Below are positions 4,561-59,052 of a DNA stretch of 64,000 nucleotides, one piece after another (the stretch's first letter is position 1; every line of letters starts with the position of its first letter). The notes beneath the pieces were generated by a model. The model saw nothing but the letters and a program-made list of their open reading frames with translations. It made no database searches and was not told where the DNA came from. Made by a program: the position numbers and the translations under genes. Origin of the DNA: Malacoraja senta. Lineage: Eukaryota. Location of the stretch: the NCBI GenBank assembly GCA_038087875.1, contig CM075991.1, forward strand, positions 1,612,001 through 1,676,000, given 5' to 3'.

Positions 4561-4869
4561 TCAGGCTTGTTTTTACAACGCTCTTACCCCTTATACAATT
4601 ATGTTGATAAGTGGCCCTTTTTGATTTTTGCCCTGGATTTGTCTGCCTGTCACTTTTACTTTTCACCTTGCTACCTATTGCTTCCGCCCGCATTTTACAC
4701 CCCTCTGTTTCTCTGCTCACCCATTTAAGAACCCCACCACCTCTTATTCTCTGTTTATTATTGTTTTCTTCTTTCCCCCCTACATGTTGGGTCTGAGTGC
4801 TTTCCTTCTCTGCCTCCTGCCTCACAGACTGTCTAATAGCTTTCTCTATTTGAGTCCCTCCCCCCAACC

Positions 4870-7406: not shown

Positions 7407-7566
7407 AAAACAAACTGCTACAATACAGTACAATCAGCAGGGATCTGACTCCCAATCAGCTGCTCCCTCTTGTCTGCTTCCACCAATGAGCGGCTTCCTC
7501 AAGCCCACGTTGCAGATTTTGGCCCCTCCTCCCTCTGCGACCTCTCCAACGGCTCTCGGGCCTCTG

Positions 7567-32600: not shown

Positions 32601-35600
32601 GGCCAAACAGCTCATTACATTTCCCTTTCAAGCACAGTGCAAGGACAACAACTCATTTTATTTCCCTTTCCAGCACAGTGCAAGCCCAACAACTCATTTC
32701 ATTTCCATTTCAACTTCAGTGCATGGCCAACAACGCATTTCATTTCCATTTCAAGCTCAGTGCAAGGCCAACAACTCATTTTATTTCAATTTCAAGTACA
32801 ATGGAAGGTCAACAACTCATTTCATGTCCGTTTCAAGCACAGTGCAAGGCCAACAACTCATTTCATTTCCATTTCAAGCACAGTGCAAGGCCAACAACAC
32901 ATTTAATTTCCATTTCAAGCACAGTGCCAGGCCAACAACCCATTTCATTTCCATTTCAACCAGTGCATGGCCAACAACGCATTTCATTTCCATTTCAAGC
33001 TCAGTGGAAGGTAAACAACTCATTTTATTTCAATTTCAAGCACTGTGCAAGGCCAACAACTCATTTTGTTTCCATTTCAAGCTCAGTGCAAGGCCAACAA
33101 CTCATTTCATTTCCATTTCAAGTTCAGTGCAAGGCCAACAATTCATTTCATTTCCATTTGAATCTCAGTGCAAGGCCAACAACTCATCTCATTTCCATTT
33201 CAGGCACAGTGCCAGGCCAACAACGCGTTTCACACCCCTTTCAAGCACATTGCAAGTCCAACAACTCATTTTAATTCAATTTCAAGCACAGTGCAAGACC
33301 AACAACTCATGTTATTTCAATTCCAAGCACAATGCATGGCCAATAACTCCTTTCATTTCCATTTCAACCACAGTGCAAGGCCAACAACTCATTTATTTCC
33401 ATTTCAAGCACAGTGCAAGGCCATCAACATATAATTTCCATTTCAAGCACAGTGCAAGTCCAACAACTCATTTCAATTCCATTTCAAGCACAGTGCCAGG
33501 CCAACAATTCGTTTCGTTTCCATTTCAAGCACAATGCAAGGCCAATAACTCATTTCATTTCCATTTCAACCAGTGCAAGGCCAACAACTCATGTCAAGCC
33601 CAGTGCAAGGCCACCAACTCATTTAATTTCCATTTCAAGTACAATGCAAGGCCAATAACTAATTACATTCCCATTTCAAGCACAGTGCAAGGCCAACAAC
33701 TCATTTAATTTCAATTTCAAGCCCAGTGCAAGGTCAACAACTCATTGAATTTCAATTTCAAGCACTGTGCAAGGCCAACAACTCATTTCATTTCCATTTC
33801 AACCAGTGCAAGGCCAACAACTCATGTCAAGCCCAGTGCAAGGCCAACAACTCATTTAATTTCAATTTCAAGCACGGTGCAAGGCCACCAACTCATTTAA
33901 TTTCCATTTCAAGTACAATGCAAGGCCAATAACTCATTACATTCCCATTTCAAGCACAATGCAAGGCCAACAACTCATTTAATTTCAATTTCAAGCCCAG
34001 TGCAAGGCCAACAACTCATTGAATTTCAATTTCAAGCACTGTGCAAGGCCAACAACTCATTTCATTTCCATTTCAAGCACAGTGCAAGGCCAAATTCTCA
34101 TTTCATTTCCATTTAATCTTCAGTGCAAGGCCAATAACTCATTTCATTTCCATTTCAAGCACAGTGCAATGCCAAAAACTCATTTCATTTCCATTTCAAC
34201 CACAGTGCAAGGCCAACAACTCATTTCATTTCCATTTCAAGCTCAGTGCAATACCATCAATTCATGTAATTTCCATTTCAAGCACAGTGCAAGGCCAACA
34301 ACTCATTTCAATTCCATTTCAAGTATAGTGCGAAGCCAACAACTCATTTCCATTTCAAGCACAGTGCAAGGCCAACAACTCGTTTCATTTCCATTTCAAC
34401 TTCAGTGCAAGGCCAACAACTCAATCCAAGCCCAGTGCAAGGCCAACAACTAATTTACTTTCAATTTCAATAACAGTGCAAGGCCAACAACTCATTTAAT
34501 TTTCATTTCAAGCACAATGCAAGGCCACAACTCATTTCATTTCCATTTCAAGCTCCGTGAAGGACAACAACTCATTTGTTTCCCTTTCAAGCACAGTGCA
34601 AGGCCAACAGCTCATTTCATTTCCATTTCAAGCTCAGTGGAAGACTAAAAACTCGTTTCATTTCCATTTCAAGCACAGTGCAAGGCCAACAACTAATTTC
34701 ATTTCCATTTCAAGCACAGTGCAAGGCCAACAACTCATTGCATTTCCATTTCAAGCACAGTGCCAGGCCAACAACTCATTTCATTTCCATTTCAAGCACA
34801 GTGGAAGGCCAACAACTCATTTCATTTCCATTTCAACTTCAGTGCAAGGCCAACAACTAATTTAATTTCCATTTAAAGCTCAGTGCAAGGTCAACAACTC
34901 ATTTTATTTCAATTTCAAGCACAGTGCAAGACCAACAACTCATTTCATTTCCATTTCAAGCACAGTGCAAGGCCAACAACTCATTGCATTTCCATTTCAA
35001 GTTCAGTGCAAGGCCAACAACTCATTTCATTTCCATTTCACGCTCAGTGCAAGGCCAACAACACATTTGTTTCCCTTTCAAGCACAGCGCAAGGCCAACA
35101 ACTCTTTCATTTCCATTTCAAGCACAGCGCAAGGCCAACAACTCTTTCATTTCCATTTCAAGCACAGTGCAAGGTCAACAACTCATTTCATTTCCATTTC
35201 AAGCTCAGTGGAAGGTAAACAACTCATTTTATTTCAATTTCAAGCACTGTGCAAGGCCAACAACTCATTTTGTTTCCATTTCAAGCTCAGTGCAAGACCA
35301 ACAACTCACTTCATTTCCATTTCAAGTTCAGTGCAAGGCCAACAATTCATTTCATTTCCATTTCAATCTCAGTGCAAGGCCAACAACTCATTTCATTTCC
35401 ATTTCAAGCACAGTGCCAGGCCAACAACGCATTTCACACCCCTTTCAAGCACATTGCAAGGCCACCAACTCATTTTAATTCAATTTCAAGCACAGTGCAA
35501 GACCAACAACTAATCTAATTTCAATTTCAAGCACAATGCATGGCCAATAACTCCTTTCATTTCCATTTCAAGCCCAGTGCAAGGCCCACAACTCATTTCA

Positions 35601-38600
35601 TTTCCATTTCAACCACAGTGCAAGGCCAACAACTCATTTCATTTCCATTTCATGCACAGTGCAAGGCCATCAACATATAATTTCCATTTCAAGCACAGTG
35701 CAAGTCCAACAACTCACTTCAATTCCATTTCAAGCACAGTGCCAGGCCAACAACTCATTTCATTTCGATTTCAAGCACAATGCAAGGCCAATAACTCATT
35801 TCATTTCCATTTCAACTTCAGCGCAAGGCCAACAACTCATGTCAAGCCCAGTGCAAGGCCAACAACTCATTTAATTTCAATTTCAAGCACAGTGCAAGGC
35901 CACCAACTCATTTAAGTTCCATTTCAAGCACAATGCAAGGCCAATAACTCATTACATTTCCATTTCAAGGACAGTGCAAGGCCAACAACTCATTTAATTT
36001 CAATTTCAAGCCCAGTGCAAGCCCATCAACTCATTTAAATTTCAAGCACTGTGCAAGGCCAACAACTCATTTCATTTCCATTTCAAGCACAGTGTAAGGC
36101 CAACAACTCATTTCATTTCCATTTCATCTTCAGTGCAAGGCCAACAACTCATTTCATTTCCATTTCAAGCACAATGCAAGGCCAATAACTCATTTCATTT
36201 CCATTTCAACTTCAGTGCAAGGCCAACAACTCATGTCAAGCCCAGTGCAAGGCCAACAACTCATTTAATTTCAATTTCAAGCACAGTGCAAGGCCACCAA
36301 CTCATTTAAGTTCCATTTCAAGCACAATGCAAGGCCAACAACTCTTTCATTTCCATTTCAAGCACAGCACAAGGTCAACAAATCATTTCATTTCCATTTC
36401 AAGCACAGTGCCAGGCCAACAACTCATTTCATTTCCATTTCAAGTACAGTGCAAGGCCAACAACTCATTTTATTTCCATTAGAAGCACAGTGCAAGGCCA
36501 ACAACTCATTTCAATTCCATTTCAAGCATAGTGCCAGTCCAACAACTCATGTCATTTTCATTTCAAGCACAGTGCAGGGCCAACAACTCATTTCATTTCC
36601 ATTTCAACTTCAGTGCAAGGCCAACAACTCATTCCAAGCCCAGTGCAAGGCCAACAACTCATTTAATTTCAATTTCAATAACAGTTGAAGGCCAACAACT
36701 CATTTCATTTCCATTTCAAGCTCAGTGAAGGCCAACAACTCATTTGTTTCCCTTTCAAGCACAGTGCAAGGCCATAAACTCATTTCATTTCCTTTTCAAG
36801 TACAATGCAAGGCCAACAACTCATTTCATTTCCCTTTCAAGCACAGTGCAAGGCCAACAACTCATTTCATTTCCATTTCAAGCACAGTGCCAGGCCAACA
36901 ACTCATGTCATTTTCATTTCAAGCACAGTGCAAGGCCAACAACTAATTTCATTTCCATTTCAACTTCAGTGCAAGGCCAACAACCCATTTTATTTCCATT
37001 TTTATAGCTCAGTGCAAGGGCAACAACTCATTTCATTTCCATTTCCAGCTCAGTGCAAGGCCAACAACTCATTTTATTTCCATTTCAAGCACAGTGCAAG
37101 GCCAACAACTCATTTTATTTCCATTTCAAGCGTAGTGCCAAGACAACAACTCATTTCATTTACATTTCAAGTACAGTGCAAGGCCAACTGCTCATAAATT
37201 TCAATTTCAAACACAGTGCAAGGCCAACAACTCATTTCAATTCCATTTCAAGCGTAGTGCCAAGCCAACAACTTGTCTCATTTTCATTTCAAGTACAGTG
37301 CAAGGCCAACTGCTCATTTTATTTCCATTTCAAGCACAGTGCAAGGCCAACAACATTGCATTTCCATTTCAAGTTCAGTGCAAGGCCAACAACTCATCTA
37401 ATTTCAATTTCAAGCACAATGCATGGCCAATAACTCCTTTCATTTCCATTTCAAGCACAGTGGAAGTCCAACTACTCATTTCATTTCCATTTCAACCACA
37501 GTGCAAGGCCAAGAACTCATTTCATTTCCATTTCAAGCACAGTGCAAGGCCATGAACATATAATTTCCATTTCAAGCACAGTGCAAGTCCAACAACTCAT
37601 TTCAATTACATTTCAAGCACAGTGCCAGGGCAACAACTCGTTTCATTTCCATTTCAAGCACAATGCAAGGCCAATAACTCATTTCATTTCCATTTCAACA
37701 TCAGTGCAAGGCCAACAACTCACTTCAAGCCCAGTGCAAGGCCAACAACTCATTTAATTTCAATTTCAAGCACAGTGCAAGGCCACCAACTCATTTAATT
37801 TCCATTTCAAGCAAAATGCAAGGCCAATAACTCATTCCATTTCAAGTTCAAGCACAGTGCAAGGCCAACAACTCATTTAATTTCAATTTCAAGCCCAGTG
37901 CAAGGCCAACAACTCATTTAATTTCAACTTCAAGCACTGTGCAAGGCCAACAACTCATTTCATTTCCATTTCAAGCACAGTGCAAGGCCAACAACTCATT
38001 TCATTTCCATTTCATCTTCAGTGCGAGGCCAATAATTCATTTCATTTCCATTTCAAGCACAGTGCAAGGCCAAAAACTCATTTCATTTCCATTTCAACCA
38101 CAGTGCAAGGCCAACAACCCATTTCATTTCCATTTCAAGCTCAGTGCAATGCCATCAATTCATATAATTTCCATTTCAAGCACAGTGCAAGGCCAACAAC
38201 TCATTTCAATTGCATTTCAAGTATCGTGCCAGGCCAACAACTCATTTCCATTTCAAGCACAGTGCAAGGCCAACAACTCATTTCATTTCCATTTCAACTT
38301 CAGTGCAAGGCCAACAACTCATTCCAAGCCCAGGCCAAGGCCAACAACTCATTTAATTTCAATTTCAAGCCCAGTGCAAGGCCAACAACTCATTAATTTC
38401 AATTTCAAGCACTGTGCAAGGCCAACAACTCATTTAATTTCAATTTCAATAACAGTGCAAGGACAACAACTCATTTAATTTTCATTTCAAGCACAATGCA
38501 AGGCCAACTGCTCATTTTATTTCCATTTCAAGCACAGTGCAAGGCCAACAACATTGCATTTCCATTTCAAGTTCAGTGCAAGGCCAACAACTCATCTAAT

Positions 38601-41600
38601 TACAATTTCAAGCACAATGCATGGCCAATAAATCCTTTCATTTCCATTTCAAGCACAGTGCAAGTCCAACTACTCATTTCATTTCCATTTCAACCACAGT
38701 GCAAGGCCAAGAACTCATTTCATTTCCATTTCAAGCACAGTGCAAGGCCATGAACATATAATTTCCATTTCAAGCACAGTGCAAGTCCAACAACTCATTT
38801 CAATTACATTTCAAGCACAGTGCCTGGGCAACAACTCATTTCATTTCCATTTCAAGCACAATGCAAGGCCAATAACTCATTTCATTTCCATTTCAACATC
38901 AGTGCAAGGCCAACAACTCATTTCAAGCCCAGTGCAAAGCCAACAACTCATTTAATTTCAATTTCAAGCACAGTGCAAGGCCACCAACTCATTTAATTTC
39001 CATTTCAAGCACAATGCAAGGCCACTAACTCATTACATTTCCATTGCAAGCACAGTGCAAGGCCAACAACTCATTTAATTTCAATTTCAAGCCCAGTGCA
39101 AGGCCAACAACTCATTTAATTTCAATTTCAAGCACTGTGCAAGGCCAACAACTCATTTCATTTCCATTTCAAGCACAGTGCAAGGCCAACAACTCATTTC
39201 ATTTCCATTTCATCTTCAGTGCAAGGCCAATAACTCATTTCATTTCCATTTCAAGCACAGTGCAAGGCCAAAAACTCATTTCATTTCCATTTCAACCACA
39301 GTGCAAGGCCAACAACCCATTTCATTTCCATTTCAAGCTCAGTGCAATGCCATCAATTCATATAATTTCCATTTCAAGCACAGTGCAAGGCCAACAACTC
39401 ATTTCAATTCCATTTCAAGTATCGTGCCAGGCCAACAACTCATTTCCATTTCAAGCACAGTGCAAGGCCAACAACTCATTTCATTTCCATTTCAACTTCA
39501 GTGCAAGGCCAACAACTCATTCCAAGCCCAGTGCAAGGCCAACAACTCATTTAATTTCAATTTCAAGCCCAGTGCAAGGCCAACAACTCATTAATTTCAA
39601 TTTCAAGCACTGTGCAAGGCCAACAACTCATTTAATTTCAATTTCAATAACAGTGCAAGGACAACAACTCATTTAATTTTCATTTCAAGCACAATGCAAG
39701 GCCAACAACTCATTTCATTTCAATTTCAAGCACAGTGCAAGGCCAACAACTCATTTCATTTCCATTTCATCTTCAGTGCAAGGCCAATAACTCATTTCAT
39801 TTCCATTTCAAGCACAGTGCAAGGCCAAAATCTCATTTCATTTCCATTTCAACCACAGTGCAAGGCCAACAACTCATTTCATTTCCATTTCAAGCTCAGT
39901 GCAATGCCATCAATTCATGTAATTTCCATTTCAAGCACAGTGCAAGGCCAACAACTCATTTCAATTCCATTTCAAGTATAGTGCCAGGCCAACAACTCTT
40001 TTCCATTTCAAGCACAGTGCAAGGCCAACAACTCATTTCATTTCCATTTCAACTTCAGTGCAAGGCCAACAACTCATTCCAAGCCCAGTGCAAGGCCAAC
40101 AACTCATTTAATTTCAATTTCAACAAACAGTGCAAGGACAACAACTCATTTAATTTTCATTTCAAGCACAATGCAAGGCCAACAACTCATTTCATTTCCA
40201 TTTCAAGCTCAGTGAAGGCCAACAACTCATTTGTTTCCCTTTCAAGCACAGTGCAAGGCCAACAACTCATTTTATTTCAATTTCAAGTACAATGCATGGC
40301 CAACAACTCATTTCATTTCCCTTTCAAGCACAGTGCAAGACCAACAACTCATTTCATTTCCATTTCAAGCACAGTGCCAGGCCAACAACTCATGTCATTT
40401 CCATTTCAAGCACAGTGCAAGGCCAACAACTCATTTCATTTCCATTTCAACTTCAGTGCAAGGCCAACAACTCATTTTATTTCCATTTTTATAGCTCAGT
40501 GCAAGGGCAACAACTCATTTCATTTCCATTTCAAGCTCAGCGCAAGGCCAACAACTCATTTTATTTCCAACCACAGTGCAAGGCCAACAACTCATTTCAT
40601 TTCCATTTCAAGTTCAGTGCAAGGCCAACAGCTCATTTCATTTCCATTTCAAGCTCAGTGCAAGACTAAAAACTCATTTAATTTCCATTTCAAGCACAGT
40701 GCAAGGCCAATAACTAATTTCATTTCCATTTCAAGCACAGTGCAAGGCCAACAACTCATTGCATTTCCATTTCAAGCACAGTGCCAGGCCAACAACTCAT
40801 TTCATTTCCGTTTCAAGCACAGTGGAAGGCCAACAACTCATTTCATTTCCATTTCAACTTCAGTGCAAGGCCAACAACTAATTAAATTTCCATTTAAAGC
40901 TCAGTGCAAGGTCAACAACTCATTTTATTTCAATTTCAAGCACAGTGCATGGCCAACAACTCATTTCATTTCCATTTCAAGCACAATGCAAGACCAACAA
41001 CTCATTTCATTTCCATTTCAAGCACAGTGCAAGGCCAACAACTCATTGCATTTCCATTTCAAGTTCAGTGCAAGGCCAACAACTCATTTCATTTCCATTT
41101 CAAGCTCAGTGCAAGGCCAACAACACATTTGTTTCCCTTTCAAGCACAGTGCAAGGCAAACAACTCGTTTGATTTCCCTTTCAAGCACAGCGCAAGGCCA
41201 ACAACTCTTTCATTTCCATTTCAAGCACAGCACAATGTCAACAAATCATTTCATTTCCATTTCAAGCACAGTGCCAGGCCAACAACTCATTTCATTAGCA
41301 TTTCAAGTACAGTGCAAGGCCAACAACTCATTTTATTTCCATTAGAAGCACAGTGCAAGGCCAACAACTCATTTCAATTCCATTTCAAGTATAGTGCCAG
41401 GTCAACAACTCATTTGCATTTCAAGTACAATGCAAGGCCAACAAATCATTTCATTTCCATTTCAACTTCAGTGCAAGACCAACAACTCATTCCAAGCCCA
41501 GTGCAAGGCCAACAACTCAGTTAATTTCAATTTCAATAGCAGTTGAAGGCCAACAACTCATTTAATTTTCATTTCAAGCACAATGCAAGGCCAACAACTC

Positions 41601-44600
41601 ATTTCATTTCCATTTCAAGCTCAGTGAAGGCCAACAACTCATTTATTTCCCTTTCAAGCACAGTGCAAGGCCAACAACTCATTTCATTTCCATTTCAAGC
41701 ACAGTGCCAGGCCAACAACTCATGTCATTTCCATTTCAAGCACAGTGCAAGGCCAACAACTCATTTCCTTTCCATTTCAACTTCAGTGCAAGGCCAACAA
41801 CTCATTGTATTTCCATTTTTATAGCTCAGTGCAAGGGCAACAACTCATTTCATTTCCATTTCAAGCACAATGCAAGACCAACAACTCATTTCATTTCCAT
41901 TTCAAGCACAGTGCAAGGCCAACAACTCATTGCATTTCCATTTCAAGTTCAGTGCTAGGCCAACAACTCATTTCATTTCCATTTCACGCTCAGTGCAAGG
42001 CCAACAACACATTTGTTTCCCTTTCAAGCACAGTGCAAGGCAAACAACTCATTTGATTTCCCTTTCAAGCACAGCGCAAGGCCAACAACTCTTTCATTTC
42101 CATTTCAAGCACAGCACAAGGTCAACAAATCATTTCATTTCCATTTCAAGCACAGTGCCAGGCCAACAACTCATTTCATTTCCATTTCAAGTACAGTGCA
42201 AGGCCAACAACTCATTTTATTTCCATTAGAAGCACAGTGCAAGGCCAACAACTCATTTCAATTCCATTTCAAGTATAGTGCCAGGTCAACAACTCATTTG
42301 CATTTCAAGTACATTGCAAGGCCAACAAATCATTTCATTTCCATTTCAACTTCAGTGCAAGACCAACAACTCATTCCAAGCCCAGTGCAAGGCCAACAAC
42401 TCAGTTAATTTCAATTTCAATAACAGTTGAAGGCCAACAACTAATTTAATTTTCATTTCAAGTACAGTGCAATGCCAACTGCTCATATAATTTCAATTTC
42501 AAGCACAGTGCAAAGCCAACAACTCATTTCAATTCCATTTCAAGCGTAGTGCCAAGCCAACAACTCATTTCATTTCCATTTCAAGCTCAGTGCAAGGCCA
42601 TCAACTCATATAATTTCAATTGCAAGCACAGTGCAAGGCCAACAACTCATTTCAATTCCATTTCAAGCGTAGTGCCAAGCCAACAACTCGTTTCATTTTC
42701 ATTTCAAGTACAGTGCAAGGCCAACTGCTCATTTTATTCCCATTTCAAGCACAGTGCAAGGCCAACAACTCATTGCATTTCCATTTCAAGTTCAGTGCAA
42801 GGCCAACAACTCATCTAATTTCAATTTCAAGCACAATGCATGGCCAATAGCTCCTTTCATTTCCATTTCAACAACAGTGCAAGGCCAACAACTCATTTCA
42901 TTTCCATTTCAAGCACAGTGCAAGGCCATCAACATATAATTTCCATTTCAAGCACAGTGCAAGTCCAACAACTCATTTCAATTCCATTTCAAGCATAGTG
43001 CAAGGCCAACAACTCGTTTCATTTCCATTTCAAGCACAATGCAAGGCCAACAACTCATTTAATTTCCATTTCAACTTCAGTGCAAGGCTAACTACTCATT
43101 TCAAGCCCAGTGCAAGGCCAACAACTCATTTAATTTCAATTTCAAGCACAGTGCAAGGCCACCAACTCATTTAATTTCCATTTCAAGCACAATGCAAGGC
43201 CAATAACTCATTACATTTCCATTTCAAGCACAGTGCAAGGCCAACAACTCATTTAATTTCAATTTCAAGCCCAGTGCAAGGCCAACAACTCATTTAATTT
43301 CAATTTCAAGCACTGTGCAAGGCCAACAACTCATTTCATTTCCATTTCAAGCACAGTGCAAGGCCAACAACTCATTTTGTTTCCATTTCAAGCACAATGC
43401 AAGGCCAACAACTCATTTCATTTCCCTTTCAAGCACAGTGCAAGGACAACAACTCATTCCATTTCCAATTCAAGCGTGGTGCCAAGCCAACAACTCATTT
43501 CATTTTCATTTCAAGTACAGTGCAATGCCAACTGCTCATATAATTTCAATTTCAAGCACAGTGCAAAGCCAACAACTCATTTCAATTCCATTTCAAGCGT
43601 AGTGCCAAGCCAACAACTCATTTCATTTCCATTTCAAGCTCAGTGCAAGGCCATCAACTCATATAATTTCAATTTCAAGCACAGTGCAAGGCCAACAACT
43701 CATTTCAATTGCATTTCAAGCATAGTGCCAAGCCAACAACTCGTTTCATTTTCATTTCAAGTACAGTGCAAGGCCAACTGCTCATTTTATTTCCATTTCA
43801 AGCACAGTGCCAGGCCAACAACTCATTGCATTTCTATTTCAAGTTCAGTGCAAGGCCAACAACTCATCTAATTTCAATTTCAAGCACAATGCATGGCCAA
43901 TAGCTCCTTTCATTACCATTTCAAGGACAGTGCAAGGCCAACAACTCATTTCATTTCCATTTCAACCACAGTGCAAGGCCAACAACTCATTTCATTTCCA
44001 TTTCAAGCACAGTACAAGGCCATCAACATATAATTTCCATTTCAAGCACAGTGCAAGTCCAACAACTCATTTCAATTCCATTTCAAGCATAGTGCAAGGC
44101 CAACAACTCGTTTCATTTCCATTTCAAGCACAATGCAAGGCCAACAACTCATTTAATTTCCATTTCAACTTCAGTGCAAGGCTAACTACTCATTTCAAGC
44201 CCAGTGCAAGGCCAACAACTCATTTAATTTCAATTTCAAGCACAGTGCAAGGCCACCAACTCATTTAATTTCCATTTCAAGCACAATGCAAGGCCAATAA
44301 CTCATTACATTTCCATTTCAAGCACAGTGCAAGGCCAACAACTCATTTAATTTCAATTTCAAGCCCAGTGCAAGGCCAACAACTCATTTAATTTCAATTT
44401 CAAGCACTGTGCAAGGCCAACAACTCATTTCATTTCCATTTCAAGCACAGTGCAAGGCCAACAACTCATTTTGTTTCCATTTCATCTTCAGTGCAAGGCT
44501 AATAACTCATTTCATTTCCATTTCAAGCACAGTGCAAGGCCAAAAACTCATTTCATTTCCATTTCAACCACAGTGCAAGGCCAACAACTCATTTAATTTC

Positions 44601-47144
44601 CATCTCAAGCTCAGTGCAATGCCATCAATTCATATAATTTCCATTTCGAGCACAGTGCAAGGCCAACAACACATTTCAATTCCATTTGAAGTATAGTGCC
44701 AGGCCAACAACTCATTTCCATTTCAAGCACAGTGCAAGGCCAACAACTCATTTCATTTCCATTTCAACTTCAGTGCAAGGCAAACAACTCATTCCAAGCC
44801 CAGTGCAAGGCCAACAACTCATTTAATTTCAATTTCAATAACAGTGCAAGGCCAACAACTCATTTAATTTTCTTTTCAAGCACAATGCAAGGCCAACAAC
44901 TCATTTCATTTCCCTTTCAAGCACAGTGCAAGGACAACAACTCATTCCATTTCCAATCAAGCGTGGTGCCAAGCCAACAACTCATTTAATTTTCATTTCA
45001 AGTACAGTGCAATGCCAACTGCTCATATAATTTCAATTTCAAGCACAGTGCAAAGCCAACAACTCATTTCCATTCCATTTCAAGCGTAGTGCCAAGCCAA
45101 CAACTCATTTCATTTCCATTTCAAGCACAGTGCAAGGCCAACAACTCATTTAATTTCCATTTTAACTTCAGTGCAAGGCCAACAACTCATTTTGTTTCCA
45201 TTTTTATAGCTCAGTGCAAGGGCAACAACTCATTTCATTTCCATTTCAAGCTCAGTACAAGGGCAACAACTCATTTCATTTCCAATTCAAGCGTAGTGCC
45301 AAGCCAACAACTCATTTCATTTAATTTTCAAGTACAGTGCAAGGCCAACTGCTCATATAATTTCAATTTCAAGCACAGTGCAAGGCCAACAACTCATTTG
45401 CATTTCAAGCACAATGCAAGGCCAACAACTCATTTCATTTCCATTTCAACTTCAGTGCAAGGCCAACAACTCATTTCATTTGCATTTCAAGTACAGTGCA
45501 AGGCCAACAACTCATTTCATTTCCATTTCAACTTCAGTGCAAGGCCAACAACTCATTTAATTTCCATTTCATGCTCAGTGCAAGGCCAACAACTCATTTT
45601 GTTTCCATTTCATGCACAGTGCAAGGCCAACAACTCATTTCCTTTCCATTTCAATTCAGTGCAAGTCCAACAACTCATTTCATTTTCAATTCAAGCTCAG
45701 TGCAAGGCCAACAACTCATTTTATTTCCCTTTCAAGCACAGTGCAAGGCCACCAACTAATTTCATTTCCATTTCAAGCATTGTGCAAGGCAAACAAATCA
45801 TTTTATTACCATTTCAAGCACAGAGCAAGGCCAACAACTCATTTCGTTTCCATTTCAAGCTCAGTGCAAGGCCATCAACTCACATAGTTTCAATTTCAAG
45901 CACAGTGCAAGGCCAACAACTCATTTCAATTCCATTTCAAGCATAGTGCCAGGCCAACAACTCACTTCATTTGCATTTCAAGTAAAGTGCAAGGCCAACA
46001 ACTCATTTTATTTCCATTTCAAGCACAGTGCAAGGCCAACAACGCATTTAATTTCCCTTTCAAGCACAGTGCAAGGCAAACAACTCATTTCATTTCCATT
46101 TCAAGCGCAGTGGAAGGTCAATTACTCATTTCATTTCCATTTCAAGCACAGTTCCAGGCCAACAACTCATTTCATTTCCATTTCAATCACAGTGGAAGGC
46201 CAACAACTCATTTCATTTCCATTTCAACTTCAGTGCAAGGCCAACAACTGATTTTATTTCCATTTGAAGCACAATGCAAGACCAACAACTCATTTCATTT
46301 CCATTTCAAGCACAATGCAAGACCAACAACCCACTTCATTTCCATTTCAAGCACAGTGCAAGGCCAACAAATCATTCCATTTTCATTTCAAGCACAGTGC
46401 AAGGCCATCAACTCATTGTGTTTCCATTTCAAGCACAGTGCCAGGCCAGGAACTCATTTCATTTCCCTTTCAAGCACAGTGCAAGGCTAAAAACTCATTT
46501 CATTTCCATTTCAAGCACAGTGCAAGGCCAACAACTCATTTCATTTCCATTTCTACTTCAGTGCAAGGCCACCAACTCATTTCATTTCTATTTCAAGCTC
46601 ATTGAAATGCCAACAACTCATTTTATTTCCATTTCAAGCACAGTGCAAGGCCAACAACTCATTTCATTTCCATTTCAATTTCAGTGCCAGGCCAAGAACT
46701 CATTTAATTTCCATTTCAATCTCAGTGCAAGGCCAACAACTCATTTTATTTCATTTTCAAGCAGTGCGAGGCCAACAACTCATTTCATTTCCATTTCAAG
46801 CACAGTGCAAGGCCAACACCACGTTTCATTTCCAATTCAAACAGTGCAAGGCTAATAATTCATTTCATTTCAATTTCAAGCACAGTGCAAGGCCAATAAC
46901 TCATTTCATTTTCATTTCAACCACAGTGCAAGGCCAACAACTCATTTCATTTCCATTTCTAGCACAGTGCAAGGCCAACAACTTATTTCATTTCCATTTC
47001 AACTTCAGTGCAAGGCCAACAACTCATTTCATTTCCAATTCAAGCTCAGTGCAAGACCAACAACTCATTTCATTTCCCTTTCAAGCACAGTGCAAGGCCA
47101 ACAACTAATTTCATTTCCATTTCAAGCATTGTGCAAGGCCAACA
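32601..47144. repeat. 41-bp satellite array, main block
   Basis: Consensus CAAGCACAGTGCAAGGCCAACAACTCATTTCATTTCCATTT with shorter deletion variants; roughly 350 units. Confidence 0.98.
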
Positions 47145-47880
47145 TGATAATATCCTACTTAATAATGACATATTTTATATTAGAATGGATTAAGTAAAAT
47201 ATTAGCTTGCGTGTCGCCTGAGTATAACCAAGCTTTTTCTGGGTGCTGAAATAAGCTGAAGTTTGCAGAAATGTGGGAATCAGGAAATTGGAGGCCAGCT
47301 TTCAAACTGCCGTTCAAGCTGGTTCCTGTTATGTGCCAAGTAGAACACCATTCACAATGGTGAGAGGGGATATACTTCCTGGGAAGGTCCAGGCTTCTGT
47401 TTACAGCAGCATTGAGAGAGGATGAGCTTCTTGAGAAATTGGTATTCTCTGCTAACATGAATTTCTGTGGGTAGCTGATTCCGAGATTGTATTGTTAAGA
47501 CAGAATTGTAATGGTTGTGTTTCTTGACTAACTTCCTGCTTTTGAATGTTTGGGATCAACAGTTTTATTATTGAAAGAAGCAAATGATGGCAAGACTATT
47601 GTATCAGTGACAAGTATACTTTGAATGGGTAGAGCTGTGATTGATTTGTATTAAACATCATTGCTGCCATTCTGTATGAACATGTGACTATGTTTCCAAA
47701 ATAGTATAAAAAAAGCTGTATGTCTCCATTCATTAGAGTGTTAGCCCAGGGAGAGCCAAGTATCGGCTGTTTACTTGGTTTTGTATCTCCTAACACTTTC
47801 GCCGGCTCAGTGATCAGTAAAGCGTGTTGGTTTTACCTAACTTATTGTGAGTTGCCTGTTTTAAGAAATGAACTTTAACA
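47145..47880 (+). repeat. 5' LTR (736 bp)
   Basis: TGATAATATC...TTTAACA, a direct repeat of 55497-56234. TATAAA at 47705-47710 and an AGTAAA poly(A)-like signal at ~47816. Confidence 0.97.
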
Positions 47881-47881
47881 T

Positions 47882-47916
47882 TGGCGTAGTCGGCAGGATT
47901 CGAACCTGCGCGGGGA
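47882..47916 (+). promoter_or_regulatory. Primer-binding site complementary to tRNA-Ser, extended to about 35 nt
   Basis: TGGCGTAGTCGGCAGGATTCGAACCTGCGCGGGGA starts 1 nt after the LTR and is the reverse complement of the vertebrate tRNA-Ser 3' end plus CCA (tRNA sequence recalled from memory). Confidence 0.9.
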
Positions 47917-48227
47917 CCCCATCAACAGCTGACTGTGCAAGAGGTTGCAGAGGTTGCCGGGATTGGAAGGGAGACAGCTGAGCTCTATCGGCCCCCTTGT
48001 AAGACCGACTCCCCTAGAAACTCCCGGGAACATCTGTGATCCTTCATCAGAGGTTGATCCAGGTTCCCTGCCGAGGTACTTAATACAGACAACAAAGGTA
48101 AGACCAGTTGGGCTTTGTGTATGTATTTTTTCAGAAGGAATTGTGTACGTATTTTTAAGAAGGGCTTGTGTATATTTTTAAGAAGGAATTGAGCGGTTTC
48201 TCTCTCTTTTTCTCTCTCTATTTTTTC

Positions 48228-48263
<36 letters not shown>

Positions 48264-48570
48264 TTTCCCCTTTCTCTCTCTCTTCAAAGGGCTCGTCGGC
48301 CTTGTTGAGACATCCGAAGTTTGTCGGGTTGAGATACAGGGGACGATGTGTGCGCCTGGCTCGTTGAGACATCCGAAGAGTTGTCGGGTTGAGAAATAAG
48401 CGGCGTTGTTTTTTTTAAAGAATTAAGAAGTCTGCCAAGTTGAGTAACTGGGGTCTCGGTTAGCGGGTCTGCCTAGTTGAAATACTTGGTGCGTTGTTCT
48501 TGTTTTTTAAAGAGTTGAGAAGTCTGCTTTCACTTTCTCTTTCTCTCTTTCTCTTTCTCTCTCTCTATCT

Positions 48571-50334
48571 ATGGGGAATAATCTGGATAAAAGTGAAGGG
48601 GGCACGGCCGTCCAACATATGTGTTATTTGAATCCTAAAAGTAACAAAGACTATAGAATATTAAGTTATAAGCTAACCAAACGTTTGGGAGATGAATCCT
48701 GGCCAGTAGGAGGCACTTGGAATGTAGAGACAATTAAAAGAGCAGAGCTGTTGATATGGGAAAGGGATGCAGGAAAGAAATGGAAAAAAATAATTAAGGA
48801 ATGGAAAGCAGAGGCAGAGAAGAAGCAAGATGGGAGTAGGGATCGGAGTTGGATGGATAATGCATGTAAGAGAGGGATAGAGTTAAGGAACAAGGATGGC
48901 ACTATGAAAGGATGGAAAGTGTTGCAGCTAGAATGCCAGTGGGCAGAGGAACAAGAGAAAAGAACTAAGAGACAGGCGGAAGGTAAAAAACAGGTGATGG
49001 TTAATAAAAAAAAACAGTACTGGTAAATTCTCCGGAGGAGACCTCATGTCTGGTACGGCGACCCTGTTTGGTAGTGAAGATGAGGATTTAGATAATCCCG
49101 GGAGGCACCCACCTCCCTATGCCCCACCAGTAGCAATGACATCCTTACCTGTAGCAGCTCCGGTAGTAACACCCATATACCCCGAAATTCCGCCCTTACA
49201 AAGCTCCCCAGAATTGGGAGCACGGGAAAACACACCCAGATGGGAAAAACCAAACGAAGAAATGAGTGAGGTAATAGAAAGTGCACAAAATTTAGCAATT
49301 GACCCTGAGGGATCAATCGGGGAGCGAGTAAAAAACAACCCTAGAAGGGCTGCGCAGAACCTCCCTATGAGAACTGTGCCAAACCCTAGGGCAGGACAAG
49401 GCAATCAGGAAGATACCATGCAGATATATGGACCATGGAAATCATATGAACAATGTATGATACGGGATAAAGCCCCAAATCGCCACAAGACCTCTCAGGA
49501 CTGGCTACGGACCGTGATATTTGGTCCATGACTATGTCGCTTCTGTCACCAGCCGAACAACAGAAGTGCAAGAATACTATGGAACATCAGACATGGCAGG
49601 CACTAAAGAACACACCAGGGCATGCAGACCATGCAGTTTGTGTACATTTTATGATGACCAATCTATTTGAATGTTTGAAAAAAACAATTAACATGTCGGT
49701 GGTCCTCGATTGTAAGCCCGGTCCAAAAGAAGACCCCCAGTCGTATCTGGATCGTTTCACTAGTATCTATGGAACCCATGCAGGAGACCCTGTATACAAT
49801 GCTGGAAACAAATCCCCAGCTTTTAATGCTATATTGATGAGTTGTCTCCCGTTCAAAGTGCAGGCAATGGTTAAAACAAACTTAAACTGGGCGGACAATG
49901 ACATAACCCAAATGAGACGTGCAGTAACTGCCTTTTGGGCTGATGGTGCCGGAAACACGGCTGCCACTAGTTCACCCAGAATAAAAACAGAATATTATAT
50001 GTGGGAACCAGCAGCTGAGGAATGCTCACAGATTCTGGCCATGAGACCAAGGAATGGGATGCGCCCTGGTAGAGGAAGGGGTTTTCAGCCTAGACCACAA
50101 TGGAACGGAGAATTCCGGGGGGGACGAGGACAAAACCACCCAGGGCAGGGAAGACCCCAAGGTGAGAGAGGAGCTGGAGGAAGCTGTTTTAAGTGTGGGG
50201 GAATAGGGCATTGGGTGAGGGACTGCCCCTCTCGTGTCACAGGGGAAGGACGGGGAAGACGGCTCCGTACTCCACCAACAACCCGTTTTCCCAATGATCC
50301 ACCGACTCCACTGTACAACACCTATTCCCACTAA
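48571..50334 (+). pseudogene. gag: Retroviral Gag, frameshifted
   Basis: N-terminal MG (myristoylation-type), PPPY late domain, MHR-like PKEDPQSYLDRF, one CCHC knuckle CFKCGGIGHWVRDC. Split over three ORFs. Confidence 0.9.
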
Positions 50335-50650
50335 TCACCAACCCCGATGAAGAACCCATAGTAAACATGATGCTGGGGGACACCAGAGTTCCGTTTTTGA
50401 TTGATACAGGAGCAACCTCATCTACCCTGAATCAGGAGCTTGCGGCATCTCTGGGAGTTCCCATGTCAGACCATGTAACACGATTATCAGGATTGGACGG
50501 GAAAGTACGGTGTTACCCCCTAACAGCCTCTGACTGTAACCTATGGACAGGAACAGTGCACCATCTCCTTTTCCCTTACCCCATATCTTGGCTGCAATCT
50601 CGCAGGCAGAGACCTATTAATAGGATTAAAAGCAGGAATTACCTGCACTG
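50298..50650 (+). pseudogene. pro: Retroviral aspartic protease, frameshifted
   Basis: FLIDTGAT active site; CNLAGRDLL occurs in the shifted frame. Confidence 0.9.
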
Positions 50651-50712
50651 ACGAGGGAATTCACCTCCAGACCCAGAAGATGATGCACACACACTTCCCA
50701 ACACCTCAATGA

Positions 50713-51060
50713 TGGGCCATTGATCTTTTGTCAGCACCAGTCTTTGGAAATACACCCAATCCACATGTGACTCTATTTTATGATCCCACGGGTTGCAATC
50801 CTGAAATGGGAGATTATTTTAGGCCACTGATAGGGAAAGCGACCACAGTCCGCTTGATAGGAACAGTGTCAGGCGAACCTGGCACTGCCGTGATAGTGCA
50901 AGTGGAAGAAGGGTTGTGGAAACAGAATGCTTCCCTAGTGGCACCGCATGTAACCACCTCAGTGAGGGCAGATCACTCAGCAAAAGAGCTGGGGTACCTC
51001 ACCTACGAATTACGCAATCAAGCAGATAACATACTGGGTGAGCAATATTTTTCTCAGGGA
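50713..51060 (+). other. 2H phosphoesterase-like domain in Pol between protease and RT
   Basis: PHVTL (His at 50764) and PHVTT...HSAKELG (His at 50947), in frame with RT. Confidence 0.75.
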
Positions 51061-51139
51061 ATACTAGAGTACTGGAAAGAGTGCCAGATTGTTGAAGGAA
51101 TCATCCGACGACACCAGCCGCCGAAGAACGACATAGACA

Positions 51140-54100
51140 AACTTCAGATTTGGTCGACATCACTGCATGAGGTAGGACTGACTTATTGTGCTCCTGTAAT
51201 GATCACGCTCAAGCCGGATGTCCGCCTCCCTGCAGTCCACCAATATCCATTAAAACCAGAGGCAGTGGCAGGAATACAGCAACTGGTACAGTCCCTTTTA
51301 TACCAGGGTATATTGGTGCAGTGTCATTCACCATGTAACACCCCGATCTTCCCGATACCCAAGCTCGGACGCTCAGAGTGGAGGCTAGTACAGGACCTTC
51401 GTGCAATTAATGACATTGTTACGCCAATGCACGCCATCGTACCTAACCCTGCAACTATCCTGAGCCAGGTTCCCGCCTCTGCAACCATCTTCACCGTAAT
51501 TGATCTACAGCATGCATTCTTCGCTGACCCTCTACATCCCGATTGCCAATACCTTTTTGCGTTTACATATGAAGGACAACAATATACGTGGACACGCCTA
51601 CCGCAAGGCTTTGTACATTCACCCATGATATTTTCCCAGTGCTAGCAGACCAGTTAAAGACATTAACCCTCCCGCAAGGCTCAGCTGTAATTCAGTATGT
51701 TGATGACCTGCTCCTCGCCAGCTCTGATGAGGCCAGCAACATCACTGACACAGCAAAGTTATTAGAAGCCTTACACGCTTGGGGGTATGTGATCCCTCAG
51801 AGGAAAGTTTCAGAGGGCAAAAAGGAGGTTAAATTTCTCGGAGTTATGATTAGTGCTACTGAAAGAGCACTCACTCCAGCAAGAGTGGACCCTATTATCC
51901 GATACCCAAAACCAGAAACCCCCAAACAAATGAGAGCCTTTTTGGGGTTAGTGAACTTTTGTCGCCAATGGATTCCCGATGTTGTGCTCTATACAAAGCA
52001 TCTATCACCGCTGGCTTCTGCAAATGCTGATCAACATTTTTCCCTCAATGAGAAACAGGCTGAGGCTTTTATAGCCCTAAAAGATGCATTAGCCTCTGCC
52101 CCAGCCATCAGCAGACCACTATATGATAGGCCATTTCATCTGTATGTTACAATAATCCAAGACTGTGCATCAGCGTACTGACGCAAACACATGGGGATGT
52201 TAAACGACCAGTAGCTTACTTCTCACTTCGCCTGGATGTGGTAGCACGCGGCTACCCCCCTTGCACTCAGATTTTGCCTGGTATACATGCCGCTGTCTCG
52301 GCTGCCGCAAACATAACTATGCATCAACCGGTGATCGTATTTACGACTCATTGTGTCACCGCATTAATGAATGCAGGCCAAACAAAATACCTCTCCCAGG
52401 CACGCCTGGGCCGTTATGAACTGACATTGTTGAATAATCAAAATTTGACCTTTCGGCATTGTTCTACAATAAATCCATCTGCCTTTTTGACAGAGCCACC
52501 TGAGCCTTGCACAGAGCCGCCCCACAATTGTGAGTTGGCCAATGACTTATTGACAAACACACGGGGGGGATTGTCCGACGTACCATTGGAAGGCAACATA
52601 CCAACATGGTTTGTCGATGGGTCCTCCATGATTATTCCTGAAACAGGACAGCGAGCTTCCGGCTATGCAGTAGTAAACGAGTCACAGATGATTTTGGAAG
52701 AAGGAAGATTTCAGATTCCGTTATCAGCACAACAGGCAGAACTATTTGCCTTAACAAGAGCCTGCATATTAGTAACGGACAAACAAATTAATATCGATAC
52801 TGATTCCGGATACGTCTTCGGCGTTGCTCATGACTTTGGCGCTCTCTGGCAACACAGAGGATTCCTGACTTCGGCAGGAACACCCATTAAGAATGCCCTT
52901 TTTGTGCGTAATTTGCTTAATGATGCTACCAGAACAGCTGGTCGTTATTAAATGTGCCGCCCACACTGGTGTTGGGGACCCTATAACCAAAGGCAGTGCA
53001 TTTGCCGATAGTGTAGCCAAACAAGCAGCCTGCGCATCCAAATGCATAGTGACAGCAGGTAAACAGATGCTAGCAAATAGAACGGTCTTGCCAGATATGA
53101 GGGAGGTATGTACATTACAGAGGGACGCCTCTGATAACCAAAAACAACTATGGAAACAAGAGGGCTGTGCTATTGATTCCACCACGGGACTTTGGCTTAC
53201 CCCTCTAGGACAAGTTTGTGTACCTGATGCATTTTTACCTGTCTTGCTAACATATATTCACTCCCTTACACATGCTGGTAAGGAGGGAATGATTAGGATG
53301 GCGAACGAAACATGGTGGCACCCGAAAATTCGGCAAGAGGCACTGAAGCAGGCTTCTGAATGTAAAATCTGCCAACGAAGTAATCCAGGCAAACCGATTA
53401 AGATACCCTCAGGAGTGATGCCAATGCCATCACGACCGTTTGAATGCATACAGATTGATTTTATTGAAATGCCAAGGGCCCATTGCTATAAATATTGCCT
53501 AGTGATTTTAGATTCATTTAGCAGGTGGATTGAAGCTCTACCAACCACTAATAATACTGCTGAAACTACGGTAACATTGTTGTTAAGAGAAGTTATTCCC
53601 AGGTTTGGCCTACCTACTGTCATAAGCTCGGACAATGGTCCCCATTTTATTGCCACTATTAATAAGGAACTATGTGCACATTTTAATATCAGACAGCAGT
53701 TTCACTGTGTACACCACCCACAGGCATCCGGGATGGTGGAAAGAGCCAATGGGGCATTGAAAAACAAAATTACCAAGCTGATGGGAGAAATGTGACAGAC
53801 ATGGATTAAAGTATTACTCTTAGCATTATTTGAAATGAGGGTAACGCCCCATAGTGCTACGAAGCTATCCCCAGCAGAAATTATCTATGGTAAACCTCTA
53901 CGAACCCCCTGGGGAGCAAGCATCACTTATGAAGGAACCCTAGATTTACACGCATTAAACGATGAAATGATAACCTATGTTCAGAGGCTCACCCATATTC
54001 TGTCAGCATTACATCTACAGGTAAAGGAGTCCCAGAGGCCGGTACCTGACGGTGACCAGAGCGAAATAGTCCAACCAGGGGACTATGTACTTATAAGAAA

Positions 54101-54305
54101 TTGGGACCGTAAGAAACTTGATGCCTGGTGGAATGGACCATACCAAGTGTTGCTGACTACACCAACGGCTGTGAAGGTTGAGAACCATCCTCGCTGGATA
54201 CATCTTACAGACTGTAAGAAAATTGGACTTGAACAAAAAGGACATGGCACAGACACTTCCAATTCTGTTGCTTGTCCTGGGAATGGCCCAGATGACCTGG
54301 ATTAA
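51140..54305 (+). pseudogene. pol: Pol: RT, RNase H, integrase; several frameshifts and a stop at 53793-53795
   Basis: RT: QYPL, WRLVQDLR, LPQGF, YVDD. RNase H: WFVDGS, SAQQAEL, TDS. Integrase: HSLTH/CKIC, QIDF, SDNG, VERAN, GPY. Confidence 0.95.
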
Positions 54306-55465
54306 TACCTTTTTGTCTATGAGTTATGAATTTGCTCGTAGGGGGAATGGCAGTGACTGTTGGGTGTGCACTTCTGTTCACCACAACAGTGCGGAAGGTG
54401 TACCGCTACTGCCAATACCCCTGAATCTAACTGAACGGCTGGCCCTACTCTGTTTTCGCAACGCTACAGCATCTAGTAGGTGCCGAGTGATCAACCACGG
54501 GTAAATGGGACCCGTAGGTATGGGGGACTTATATATGATAATTTTAAAGGATAGTACACCCCCCCCATTTAAACCAGGGTGGAAGGTGAATGAAACTAAG
54601 GTATGGAAGATACCCCGGATGAGAATAATAAGCGATCCTCGTATATTATCAAATGCCTCATGTCATTGCAACTACCTAGAAAAGGGTTTATATTTGGGAA
54701 ACAGCTCATGCACTACAATCTCGCCTCAGGGACCACCACGATCAGTAAATGGAACATACTTTGTGTGTGGGTCATGAGCATATCCGTGGCTGCCAGGGAT
54801 GCCACTGGAAGACCACAGCAATTGGGAAAGGAAGTGGGGAAAGAACTACCGCTGGAATGGGTGCTGCTATATAGCCTATGTTGTTCCCTATATGAGGATG
54901 GTCCAGGATCTTACACAAGTAGATAAAACCACAAGTCAAAAGGGGTATCTCGGAAACTGAGAGGTATAGGATGATCATTTCCCCCCCGTATGGTGTAGCT
55001 AGAGCCGCTAAGGAATTAAAAAATATGGCATCGGCTATGGAAACTTTAGCTAATTCCACTGCACAGGCTTTTATGGATGTACGGCAATCCATTCAGGACA
55101 TCACTGCTGAAATGGTGGCGATGAGAGTAGTAGTCCTCCAGAACCGAATGGCATTAGATTTTATTCTAGCAGAGAAAGGGAGTACTTGTGCTATTATAGG
55201 GCGCGAATGTTGCATTTACATTCCCGATGAATCCTCTAACATTACAGATTTAGCAGCACATATCACCAGAGAAATAAAGAAGATTACAGAGGTTGGGGAA
55301 GAAATGCATAACATTAATAAAGGTGGAGAATGTTGGCCATTTAGCATGTTTGGAGGAATATGGGGAATGATAATTCACTATGGATCTTTTGTACTGTTGA
55401 TTGTTGTATTAATCTATGTACTGAAATGCTTGAAGCCTTTAGTATGTACTAACCAAGGACTGTAG
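54244..55465 (+). pseudogene. env: Gamma-type Env; stops at 54502 and 54775, frameshift near 54925
   Basis: Signal peptide MAQTLPILLLVLG, SU CWVC, QVKR cleavage-like site, ISD LQNRMALDFILA, CX6CC (CAIIGRECC), TM anchor. Confidence 0.92.
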
Positions 55466-55483
55466 TGTTATCATTCATATGAT

Positions 55484-55496
55484 AAATAGGAGGGAA
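55484..55496 (+). promoter_or_regulatory. Polypurine tract
   Basis: AAATAGGAGGGAA directly before the 3' LTR. Confidence 0.85.
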
Positions 55497-56234
55497 TGAT
55501 AATATCCTAGTTAATAATGACATATTTTATAATTAGAATGGATTAAGTAAAATATTAGCTTGCGTGTCGCCTGAGTATAACCCAGCTTTTTCTGGGTGCT
55601 GAAATAAGCTGACGTTTGCAGAAATGTGGGAATCAGGAAATTGGAGGCCAGCTTTCAAACTGCCATTCAAGCTGGTTCCTGTTATGTGTCACGTAGAACA
55701 CCATTCACAATGGTGAGAGGGGATATACTTCCTGGGAAGGTTCAGGCTTCTGTTTACGGAAGCCTTGAGAGAGGATGAGCTTCTTGAGAAATTGGTATTC
55801 TCTGCTAACATGAATTTCTGTGGGTAGCTGACATTCCGAGATTGTATTGTTAAGACAGAATTGTAATGGTTGTGTTTCTTGACTAACTTCCTGCTTTTGA
55901 ATGTTTGGGATCAACAGTTTTATTATTGAAAGAAGCAATTGATGGCAAGACTATTGTATTAGTGACAAGTATACTTTGAATGGGTAGAGCTGTGATTGAT
56001 TTGTATTAAACATCATTGCTGCCATTCTGTATGAAATTGTGACTATGTTTCCAAAATAGTATAAAAAAGCTGTATGTCTTCATTCATTAGAGTGTTAGCC
56101 CAGGGAGAGCCAAGTATCGGCGGTTTACCTGGCTTTGTATCTCCTAACACTTTCGCCGGCTCAAAGATCAGTAAAGCTTGTTGGTTTTACCTAACTTATT
56201 GTGAGTTGTCTGTTTTAAGAAATGAACTTTAACA
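55497..56234 (+). repeat. 3' LTR (738 bp)
   Basis: Direct repeat of the 5' LTR; manual count of about 22 substitutions and 3 small indels. Confidence 0.97.
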
Positions 56235-56645
56235 AACAACTCATTTCATTTCCATTTCAAGCACAGAGCAAGGCCAACAACTAATTTCATTTCCATTTCA
56301 AGCACATTGCAAGGCCACCAACTCATTTCATTTCCATTTAAAGCGCAGTGCAAGGTCAACAACTCATTTTATTTCAATTTCAAGCACAGTGCAAGGCCAA
56401 CAACTCATTTCATTTCCATTTCAAGCACAATGCAAGATCAACAACTCATTTCATTTCCATTTCAAGCACACTGCAAGACCAACAACTCATTTCATTTCCA
56501 TTTCAAGCACAGTGCAAGGTCAACAAATCATTCCATTTGCATTTCAAGCACAGTGCAAGGCCATCAACTCATTTAATTTCCATTTCAAGCACAGTGCCAG
56601 GCCAGGTACTCATTTAATTTCCCTTTCAAACACAGTGCAAGGCCA
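56235..56645. repeat. 41-bp satellite, middle block
   Basis: Same consensus, resuming in phase after the provirus. Confidence 0.97.
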
Positions 56646-57463: not shown

Positions 57464-58435
57464 ACAACTCATTTCATTTCCATTTCGAGCACAGTGCAAG
57501 GCCAACAACTCATTTCATTTCCATTTCAAGCACAATGCAAGGCCATCAACTCATTTCATTTCCATTTCAAGCACAGTGCCAGGCCAACAACTCATTTCAT
57601 TTCCCTTTCAAGCACAGTGCAAGGTCAACAACTCATTTAATTTCCATTTCAAGCACAGTGCAAGGCCAACTCATTTCATTTCCATTTCAACTTCAGTGCA
57701 AGGCCACCAACTCATTTCAATTCTATTTCAAGCTCAGTGCAATGCCAACAACTCATTTCATTCCCATTTCAAGCACAATGCAAGATCAACAACTCATTTC
57801 ATTTCCATTTCAAGCTCACTGCAAGACCAACAACTCATTTCATTTCCATTTCAAGCACAATGCAAGGTCAACAAATCATTCGATTTGCATTTCAAGCACA
57901 GTGCAAGGCCATCAACTCATTTAATTTCCATTTCAAGCACAGTGCCAGGCCAGGTACTCATTTAATTTCCCTTTCAAACACAGTGCAAGGCCAACAACTC
58001 ATTTCATTTCCATTTCGAGCACAGTGCAAGGCCAACAACTCATTTCATTTCCATTTCAAGCACAATGCAAGGCCATCAACTCATTTCATTTCCATTTCAA
58101 GCACAGTGCCAGGCCAACAACTCATTTCATTTCCCTTTCAACTTCAGTGCAAGGCCACCAACTCATTTCAATTCTATTTCAAGCTCAGTGCAATGCCAAC
58201 AACTCGTTTTATTTCCATTTCAAGCAAAGTGCAAGGCCAACAACTCATTTAATTTCCATTTCATGTTCAGTGCAAGGCCAACAACTCATTTAATTTCCAT
58301 TTCAAGCTCAGTGCAAGGCCAACCACTCATTTTATTTCCTTTTGCAGCACAGTGCAAGGCCAACATCTCATTTCATTTCCATTTCTCGCACAGTGCAAGG
58401 CCAACAACTCATTTCATTTCCATTTCAAGCACAGT
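57464..58435. repeat. 41-bp satellite, right block
   Basis: Same consensus. Confidence 0.97.
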
Positions 58436-59052
58436 GGTCAATACAGAAATGGTCTTGTCAACACATCCTTTCTGCCCATCTCCCATATACCTGCCCATTT
58501 CACATTATTGAGGTAGCCAGGCACAATTGTGGCAACCTCATGGAAATCCTCTTGACTCTGCCAATGCCCATTTTGCGATCCTTTGCCCTTTTCCAACCAA
58601 TTCTCCCCCTTTCCAATAATTACGTTTCCCTCGTTCAGATAGCTTGCCATTTTTGCTCCAACTGTAAGGTGAAGCTGTGAGTGCAAAGATGGCCTGATCC
58701 ATTGCCGCAGAACTAATCAATACTGCTCTTTGTTATCGGCTTTGGTATCGATATTGTTGTCGGGTTATTATCGACATGTATACCGAAACATTGTGAAATA
58801 TTGTGCTTCATGTACTATCCTGGCAGATCATACATTATGTGAGTACAACAGGTACTGCAAAGATAAAATATATATGGAAGAATATAGTGTTACAGCGCCA
58901 AGGAAACATTTGATAAAAATGAGCAAGTTTATGCAACTATGAAGTTATGACCGAGAACTGGCTTTCACTCCTCTCACCATTGTGTTCTCTTTTGTAAAGG
59001 ATTTACAATCTCATTGATTCTTCCTTCCGTCATCTGATCATTATAAATGTTA

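Follow-up and report, generated by a model that had tools for sequence, protein, structure and literature searches.

Retroviral plus-strand strong-stop DNA normally ends before m1A58 of the tRNA primer, with minor products ending at position 55, 54 or 37 (PMC13191261; PMC8599865). In lentiviruses and spumaviruses, a "primer over-extension sequence" lets products ending at positions 54-55 still be transferred (Muthuswami et al. 2002, as cited in PMC13191261; see also PMC8599865). Further read-through is documented in HIV-1, for which 44 proviruses (43 from GenBank and one newly described) have, behind the primer site, 7-54 nt of tRNA-Lys3; these inserts were ascribed to delayed second-strand transfer, and every one of the 44 proviruses is defective and has its insert where sequence was deleted (PMC12657518). 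Among endogenous elements, XtERV-S has a site matching 19 nt of Ser(AGA/TGA) (PMC8278194). A literature search that reached few subscription papers turned up no report of an endogenous retrovirus with a long primer site, and PMC10699275 gives no primer-site data.

The locus described here lies in a stretch of 64,000 nucleotides from Malacoraja senta (hereafter the window, meaning all of the DNA analysed) and belongs to a decayed, epsilon-like provirus of 9.1 kb (47145-56234; the provirus and all its features are on the forward strand). The provirus sits within a 41-bp satellite, whose array stops at 47144 and restarts at 56235, and is flanked by a 4-bp target-site duplication (left copy 47141-47144, right copy 56235-56238). 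Comparison of the LTR pair delimits a 5' LTR (47145-47880) of the form TG...CA, and the primer site is followed by the remaining 5' leader (47922-48570), which contains a splice-donor-like site near 48098 and five 6-nt palindromes. Downstream lie gag, broken into three open pieces and with a zinc knuckle (48571-50334); a protease broken by one frame change (50298-50651); a 2H phosphoesterase domain between protease and reverse transcriptase (RT), with HxT motifs at about 50764 and 50947 (50713-51120); RT, RNase H and integrase, interrupted by frame changes and stops (51121-54305); a broken env with a class I-type TM (TLV_coat; 54175-55465); and a 3' LTR (55497-56234) with a polypurine tract just upstream. 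All of gag, pro, pol and env are recognisable and all are broken, pol having 4 frame changes in 3.6 kb. The arrangement gag-pro-pol-env between LTRs, an RT near those of walleye viruses and a class I TM place the element among epsilon-like class I endogenous retroviruses, an assignment that rests on these features rather than on a tree. Among named proteins, the one closest to it comes from Amblyraja radiata (84-94%). Related elements were found in 20 sequencing runs under 9 organism labels, with word shares of 0.14-0.42, none reaching half, although these shares do not bear on the primer site or on expression; no RNA run is among the runs listed.

The two LTRs are 96.5% identical, with 22 substitutions and 3 indels over 738 columns. 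Transversions (12) outnumber transitions (10) among these differences, which is unusual for neutral decay, and assembly error or gene conversion are possible causes. The 41-bp satellite occupies 32600-47144, 56235-56645 and 57464-58436, with about 360 copies to the left of the provirus. Elsewhere in the window (1757-5104 on the reverse strand, and 5768-7407), a LINE with endonuclease and RT domains adjoins an array of 26 tandem 63-bp repeats (97% identity); this array is open in several frames, and the Pfam hits within it are repeat artefacts. In addition, an Amblyraja gene model (P0001) presents the 2H-RT segment of the provirus family fused to a zinc-finger array, which is likely to be a gene-prediction artefact.

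The initial annotation had proposed that the primer-binding site of this provirus matches about 35 nt of tRNA-Ser rather than 18, followed by about 5 nt more after a 2-nt gap, and this description proves accurate. The site begins 1 nt past the CA end of the 5' LTR, within the 0-3 nt at which a canonical primer-binding site starts, and opens with the complement of CCA. Its canonical 18 nt, assigned to tRNA-Ser(AGA/TGA/CGA) (47882-47899), are followed by a 17-nt extension (47900-47916) complementary to A58, the rest of the T loop, the 5' strand of the T stem, C48 and the 3' strand of the variable arm, stopping at the base before 47d. Together the 35 nt (47882-47916) are complementary, without a mismatch, to mature tRNA-Ser from its 3' end inwards (linear position 85 down to 51 in a tRNA of 85 nt, CCA included), and beyond a 2-nt gap covering 47d another 5 tRNA-Ser bases (47917-47921) reach U44. 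A canonical match ends at 18 nt, before A58, whereas here the match to the primer tRNA runs on in register past position 58. Alternative gaps of 1, 3 or 4 nt yield just 0, 3 or 2 further matches, respectively. The chance of 17 exact bases past the canonical 18 is about 6e-11, and in a generic read-through test that is independent of any tRNA the site scores 5/5 loop positions and 5/5 stem pairs.

As reference tRNAs, we used 63 metagenome loci containing animal tRNA-Ser genes rather than the host's own genes, called with ARAGORN and with CCA added. Aligned to this set, the site matches 35 nt rather than about 18 in 26 of the 47 distinct Ser-labelled genes and more in none, a proportion that is no estimate of chance, since the loci were chosen for containing the pattern. 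Met, Thr, Ile and Val tRNA genes match over at most 4 nt, and five oddly labelled tRNA calls, probably decayed Ser copies, match over 33-35 nt. The CCA complement stands in front in 1 of 58 distinct tRNA-gene contexts, and a variable loop shorter by 2 nt occurs in none of the 58, which argues that the gap was not derived from a common isodecoder. The presence of the non-encoded CCA, together with the exact register 1 nt after the LTR, identifies the template as mature tRNA copied by the viral RT. ARAGORN called no tRNA gene within the 64-kb window, and Rfam, run on the window, reported chance hits only and not the tRNA fragment. The CpGs in the match, 5 of 5 of them intact, are uninformative; at 12 CpG sites in the LTRs, the two copies differ in 6. 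All 17 bases of the extension have stayed unchanged, as would be expected with a probability of 0.77 from LTR divergence alone, and their preservation therefore fits recency and maintenance alike.

The match first fails at linear position 50 of the tRNA, which is 47d, and the gap spans this position in either alignment. In human tRNA-Ser, m3C at position 47d is an RT stop by primer extension, as demonstrated for Ser-GCT (PMC9072684), and m3C47d is reported for Ser-AGA, CGA, TGA and GCT (PMC11233606). If 47d is m3C as in human tRNA-Ser, the exact match thus begins at the CCA end and runs up to the first base beyond A58 that blocks pairing. By analogy, we infer that the skate tRNA-Ser carries m3C47d; since 47d itself falls inside the gap, a C at this position is not confirmable from the site, and T47d isodecoders exist.

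Four distant comparators, none of them a member of the provirus's family, allow the primer site to be set against those of other elements, and the long site is present in none of the four. A search of viral contigs with the RT query returned 3 loci, of which one includes a 5' end (L064, a fish retrovirus of 12,708 nt that we take to be walleye dermal sarcoma virus), and no 5' end from a close relative. The RT of the provirus is 58% identical to that of L064 over 150 RT residues. In the read-through test, L064 scores 2/5 loop positions and fails after 20 nt, against 5/5 for the provirus. Two of the elephant-shark CmiERV elements have readable sites, the primer tRNA on scaffold 324 being presumably tRNA-Gln. 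The element on scaffold 2 shares the tRNA-Ser primer of the provirus and that on scaffold 324 shares the order protease-2H-RT, yet both depart from their tRNAs at base 19 and have 18-nt sites as judged by eye, in contrast to the 35 nt seen here (PMC4422223 and its supplement 1); scaffold 2324 was left out because it comes without a 5' end (PMC4422223 supplement 1). On scaffold 324, four bases past the 18-nt site would, by eye, match tRNA positions 57-54 if the base opposite A58 were skipped (PMC4422223 supplement 1), a match that may be due to chance or represent a short over-extension sequence. The fourth comparator is XtERV-S, mentioned above. The integrase, P0008 and prokaryote-genome scans likewise found no 5' end of a relative. 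The exact pattern of the site had no hits in the viral contigs, and its hits in metagenomes were all tRNA genes. A search with an antisense frame of the neighbouring leader found no protein, and no clear structure covering the primer site emerged when the leader was folded.

The substrates that 2H enzymes open are 2',3'-cyclic phosphates; when an RNA is cut, such groups remain on its 5' piece and not at a CCA end. That pol encodes a 2H domain had been stated in the initial annotation, and two HxT motifs together with a predicted CNPase-like fold support this. The motifs (H18 and H79 of the open piece) are nearly invariant in 10 aligned sequences, and the structure model (pLDDT 83.5) finds its best fold match in mouse CNPase (E 1.9e-4, TM 0.65); it has 22 PDB matches at E <= 0.001, all matches listed being CNPase, and it also folds like a fungal tRNA-ligase phosphodiesterase. 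Searches with the sequence of the domain gave no Pfam hit and no PDB hit. Twelve relatives occur in the representative library, the named ones coming from skates, rays and a catshark, and the Pol 2H domain of the provirus recurs in proteins named from Leucoraja, Amblyraja, Mobula and Scyliorhinus; an alignment of 2H sequences proved too diverse to serve as a scanning query. In L064, the Env tail (L064 9046-9240) contains a 2H homologue (29% identity, pairwise E 2e-6). No 2H domain lies between protease and RT in L064, and the gene that harbours the domain thus varies among fish retroviruses. That fish retroviruses carry 2H domains was already known (PMC9503650, citing Mazumder et al. 2002), and the one in the provirus resembles them and vertebrate CNPase in its two HxT motifs, its CNPase-like fold and its homology to the L064 domain, but differs in its position in Pol between protease and RT rather than in the Env tail, both being putative in function (PMC9503650). 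Capture of the domain from the host is a possibility.

We lean towards reading the site as the fossil of a plus strand that over-extended past A58, stalled and skipped at 47d, and underwent an aberrant second-strand transfer. Priming would have been ordinary, from the CCA end of full-length tRNA-Ser. In a single round of reverse transcription, in the provirus or a recent ancestor, plus-strand strong-stop DNA would have passed A58 with a templated base, either on an under-methylated primer or by bypass, and would then have copied the T arm and half of the variable arm. At the next block to base pairing, m3C47d, synthesis would have stalled, two bases would have been skipped and five more copied, before transfer to the minus strand slightly downstream, such that a few bases formerly after the primer site were replaced. 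The extra sequence would have been carried passively ever since, and we infer that the extension is not under selection. Spleen necrosis virus vectors give similar read-through products. Read-through of m1A58 as a class of event, one of the possibilities raised in the initial annotation, has its precedent in HIV-1 (PMC12657518, PMC8599865, PMC13191261). The tRNA-Lys3 inserts of HIV-1 resemble the present case in that tRNA sequence runs on right after the 18-nt site, and the 22 extra nt here fall inside their range of 7-54 nt, whereas the provirus differs in using tRNA-Ser, in being in the germ line, in its internal 2-nt gap at 47d and in showing no evident large leader deletion (PMC12657518). 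The lack of the long site in the distant comparators supports the fossil reading. Against a pure one-off, the leader measures 689 nt, with its splice-donor-like site about 216 nt beyond the primer site; it is not shorter than the leaders of the comparators (that of L064 being about 646 nt), and no copy of the leader sequence after the site was found elsewhere in the provirus. Given this length and the splice-donor-like site, any deletion was probably small, the virus may have gone on replicating with the insert, and its descendants may share the extension.

A tentative alternative, which we consider clearly the less probable, is that the provirus represents a family in which all members maintain a primer over-extension sequence of very great length that is matched to m3C47d. 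In such a family, plus strands ending at A58 (18 nt) or at 47d (35 nt) might both transfer perfectly, and the longer duplex might aid primer capture; the sequence might have originated as a read-through accident and been preserved since, either because it was selected or because it was copied anew from the tRNA time after time. A short over-extension matched to a second stop at positions 54-55 is retained in lentiviruses and spumaviruses (PMC13191261, PMC8599865), and the likeness would lie in viral sequence that adjoins the primer site and follows the tRNA as far as a second modification stop, although theirs comprises about 4 extra bases, conserved across viruses, as opposed to the 17 exact bases to 47d found here (PMC13191261). 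In keeping with a maintained sequence, the exact match ends right at the next pairing-blocking base (47d, m3C being known there from human tRNA-Ser), the leader lacks a large deletion, and related elements occur in the 20 runs under 9 labels noted above, the shares for which do not cover the primer site. The duplex predicted with unmodified tRNA also has an energy of -79 kcal/mol at 35 nt versus -37 at 18 nt, but a lower energy is automatic for any longer match, and the calculation ignores m1A58. Set against a maintained sequence, moreover, no second copy was seen in the viral contigs, metagenome contigs and prokaryote genomes searched, all four distant comparators lack the long site, and a stop at 47d does not account for the five bases past the gap, which point instead to synthesis that overshot once. 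Should this doubtful reading hold nonetheless, a skate retrovirus family would have a fixed 35-nt match in which m3C47d of tRNA-Ser is the second plus-strand stop, replication with primers lacking m1A58 would be possible, and the over-extension would be the longest on record. A separate question concerns the gap, for which a viral origin seems probable and an RT skip is the cause that we deduce. It is possible, though rather unlikely, that a 42-nt read-through occurred without any skip and that 2 nt were lost later through replication slippage in the host genome or an assembly error, an estimate that applies to the gap alone and does not add to those for the site as a whole. The gap lies at the tip of a hairpin, in a dinucleotide repeat of two units with a homopolymer run on either side, one of the indels between the LTRs is also of 2 nt, and the provirus has several frame changes, all of which favour later loss. 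However, the per-base indel rate of the provirus, about 0.1-0.2% from the LTR pair and the pol frame changes, gives a prior for a later indel of about 3-4% anywhere in the 22-nt extension and of roughly 0.5% on the 2-3 bases covering 47d, before allowing for the repeat.

Two further proposals place the origin of the long site outside ordinary priming. We regard it as highly improbable that priming was non-canonical and used a 3' tRNA half or fragment made ready by the Pol 2H enzyme, as the initial annotation had suggested in linking the 2H domain to an unusual primer. The domain is real, with a predicted fold like CNPase and the fungal tRNA-ligase phosphodiesterase, and a fragment beginning near U44 would give run-off at about the observed length. 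Yet the match stops at U44, outside and short of the anticodon loop, A58 is still within any 3' fragment and must still be passed, and the cyclic phosphates opened by 2H enzymes sit on the 5' piece of a cut RNA, leaving such an enzyme no obvious job on a CCA-ended primer. Furthermore, the two other fish retroviruses that carry 2H and whose 5' end can be read both have canonical sites, which speaks against the link: elephant-shark scaffold 324 has both 2H motifs between protease and RT, yet an 18-nt site by eye (PMC4422223), and L064, with its homologue in the Env tail, leaves the read-through pattern after 20 nt. HTLV-1, for its part, packages an 18-nt fragment, yet it is the full tRNA that primes (PMC11251516). 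Least credible of all is the insertion of a tRNA retro-pseudogene or SINE head beside the LTR after integration. Copies of tRNAs can integrate beside proviruses in cell culture (PMC12220202), but the piece starts exactly at the position required of a primer site, in primer-site orientation and with the CCA complement first, and neither a second primer site nor a duplication of the following leader was found.

If the long site is an accident, as the over-extension reading that we favour would have it, then the read-through slip known from HIV-1 also occurs in the germ line and can leave a near-complete provirus, and a second tRNA modification leaves its mark in DNA. If, on the other hand, it is family-wide, it would be a natural exception to the 18-nt rule, with the plus-strand stop determined by another modification, and the role of m1A58 would become testable by comparison; proviruses of this family would then be a fossil record of tRNA modification in the cartilaginous-fish germ line. 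Under either of these readings, the 2H domain needs an explanation other than priming.
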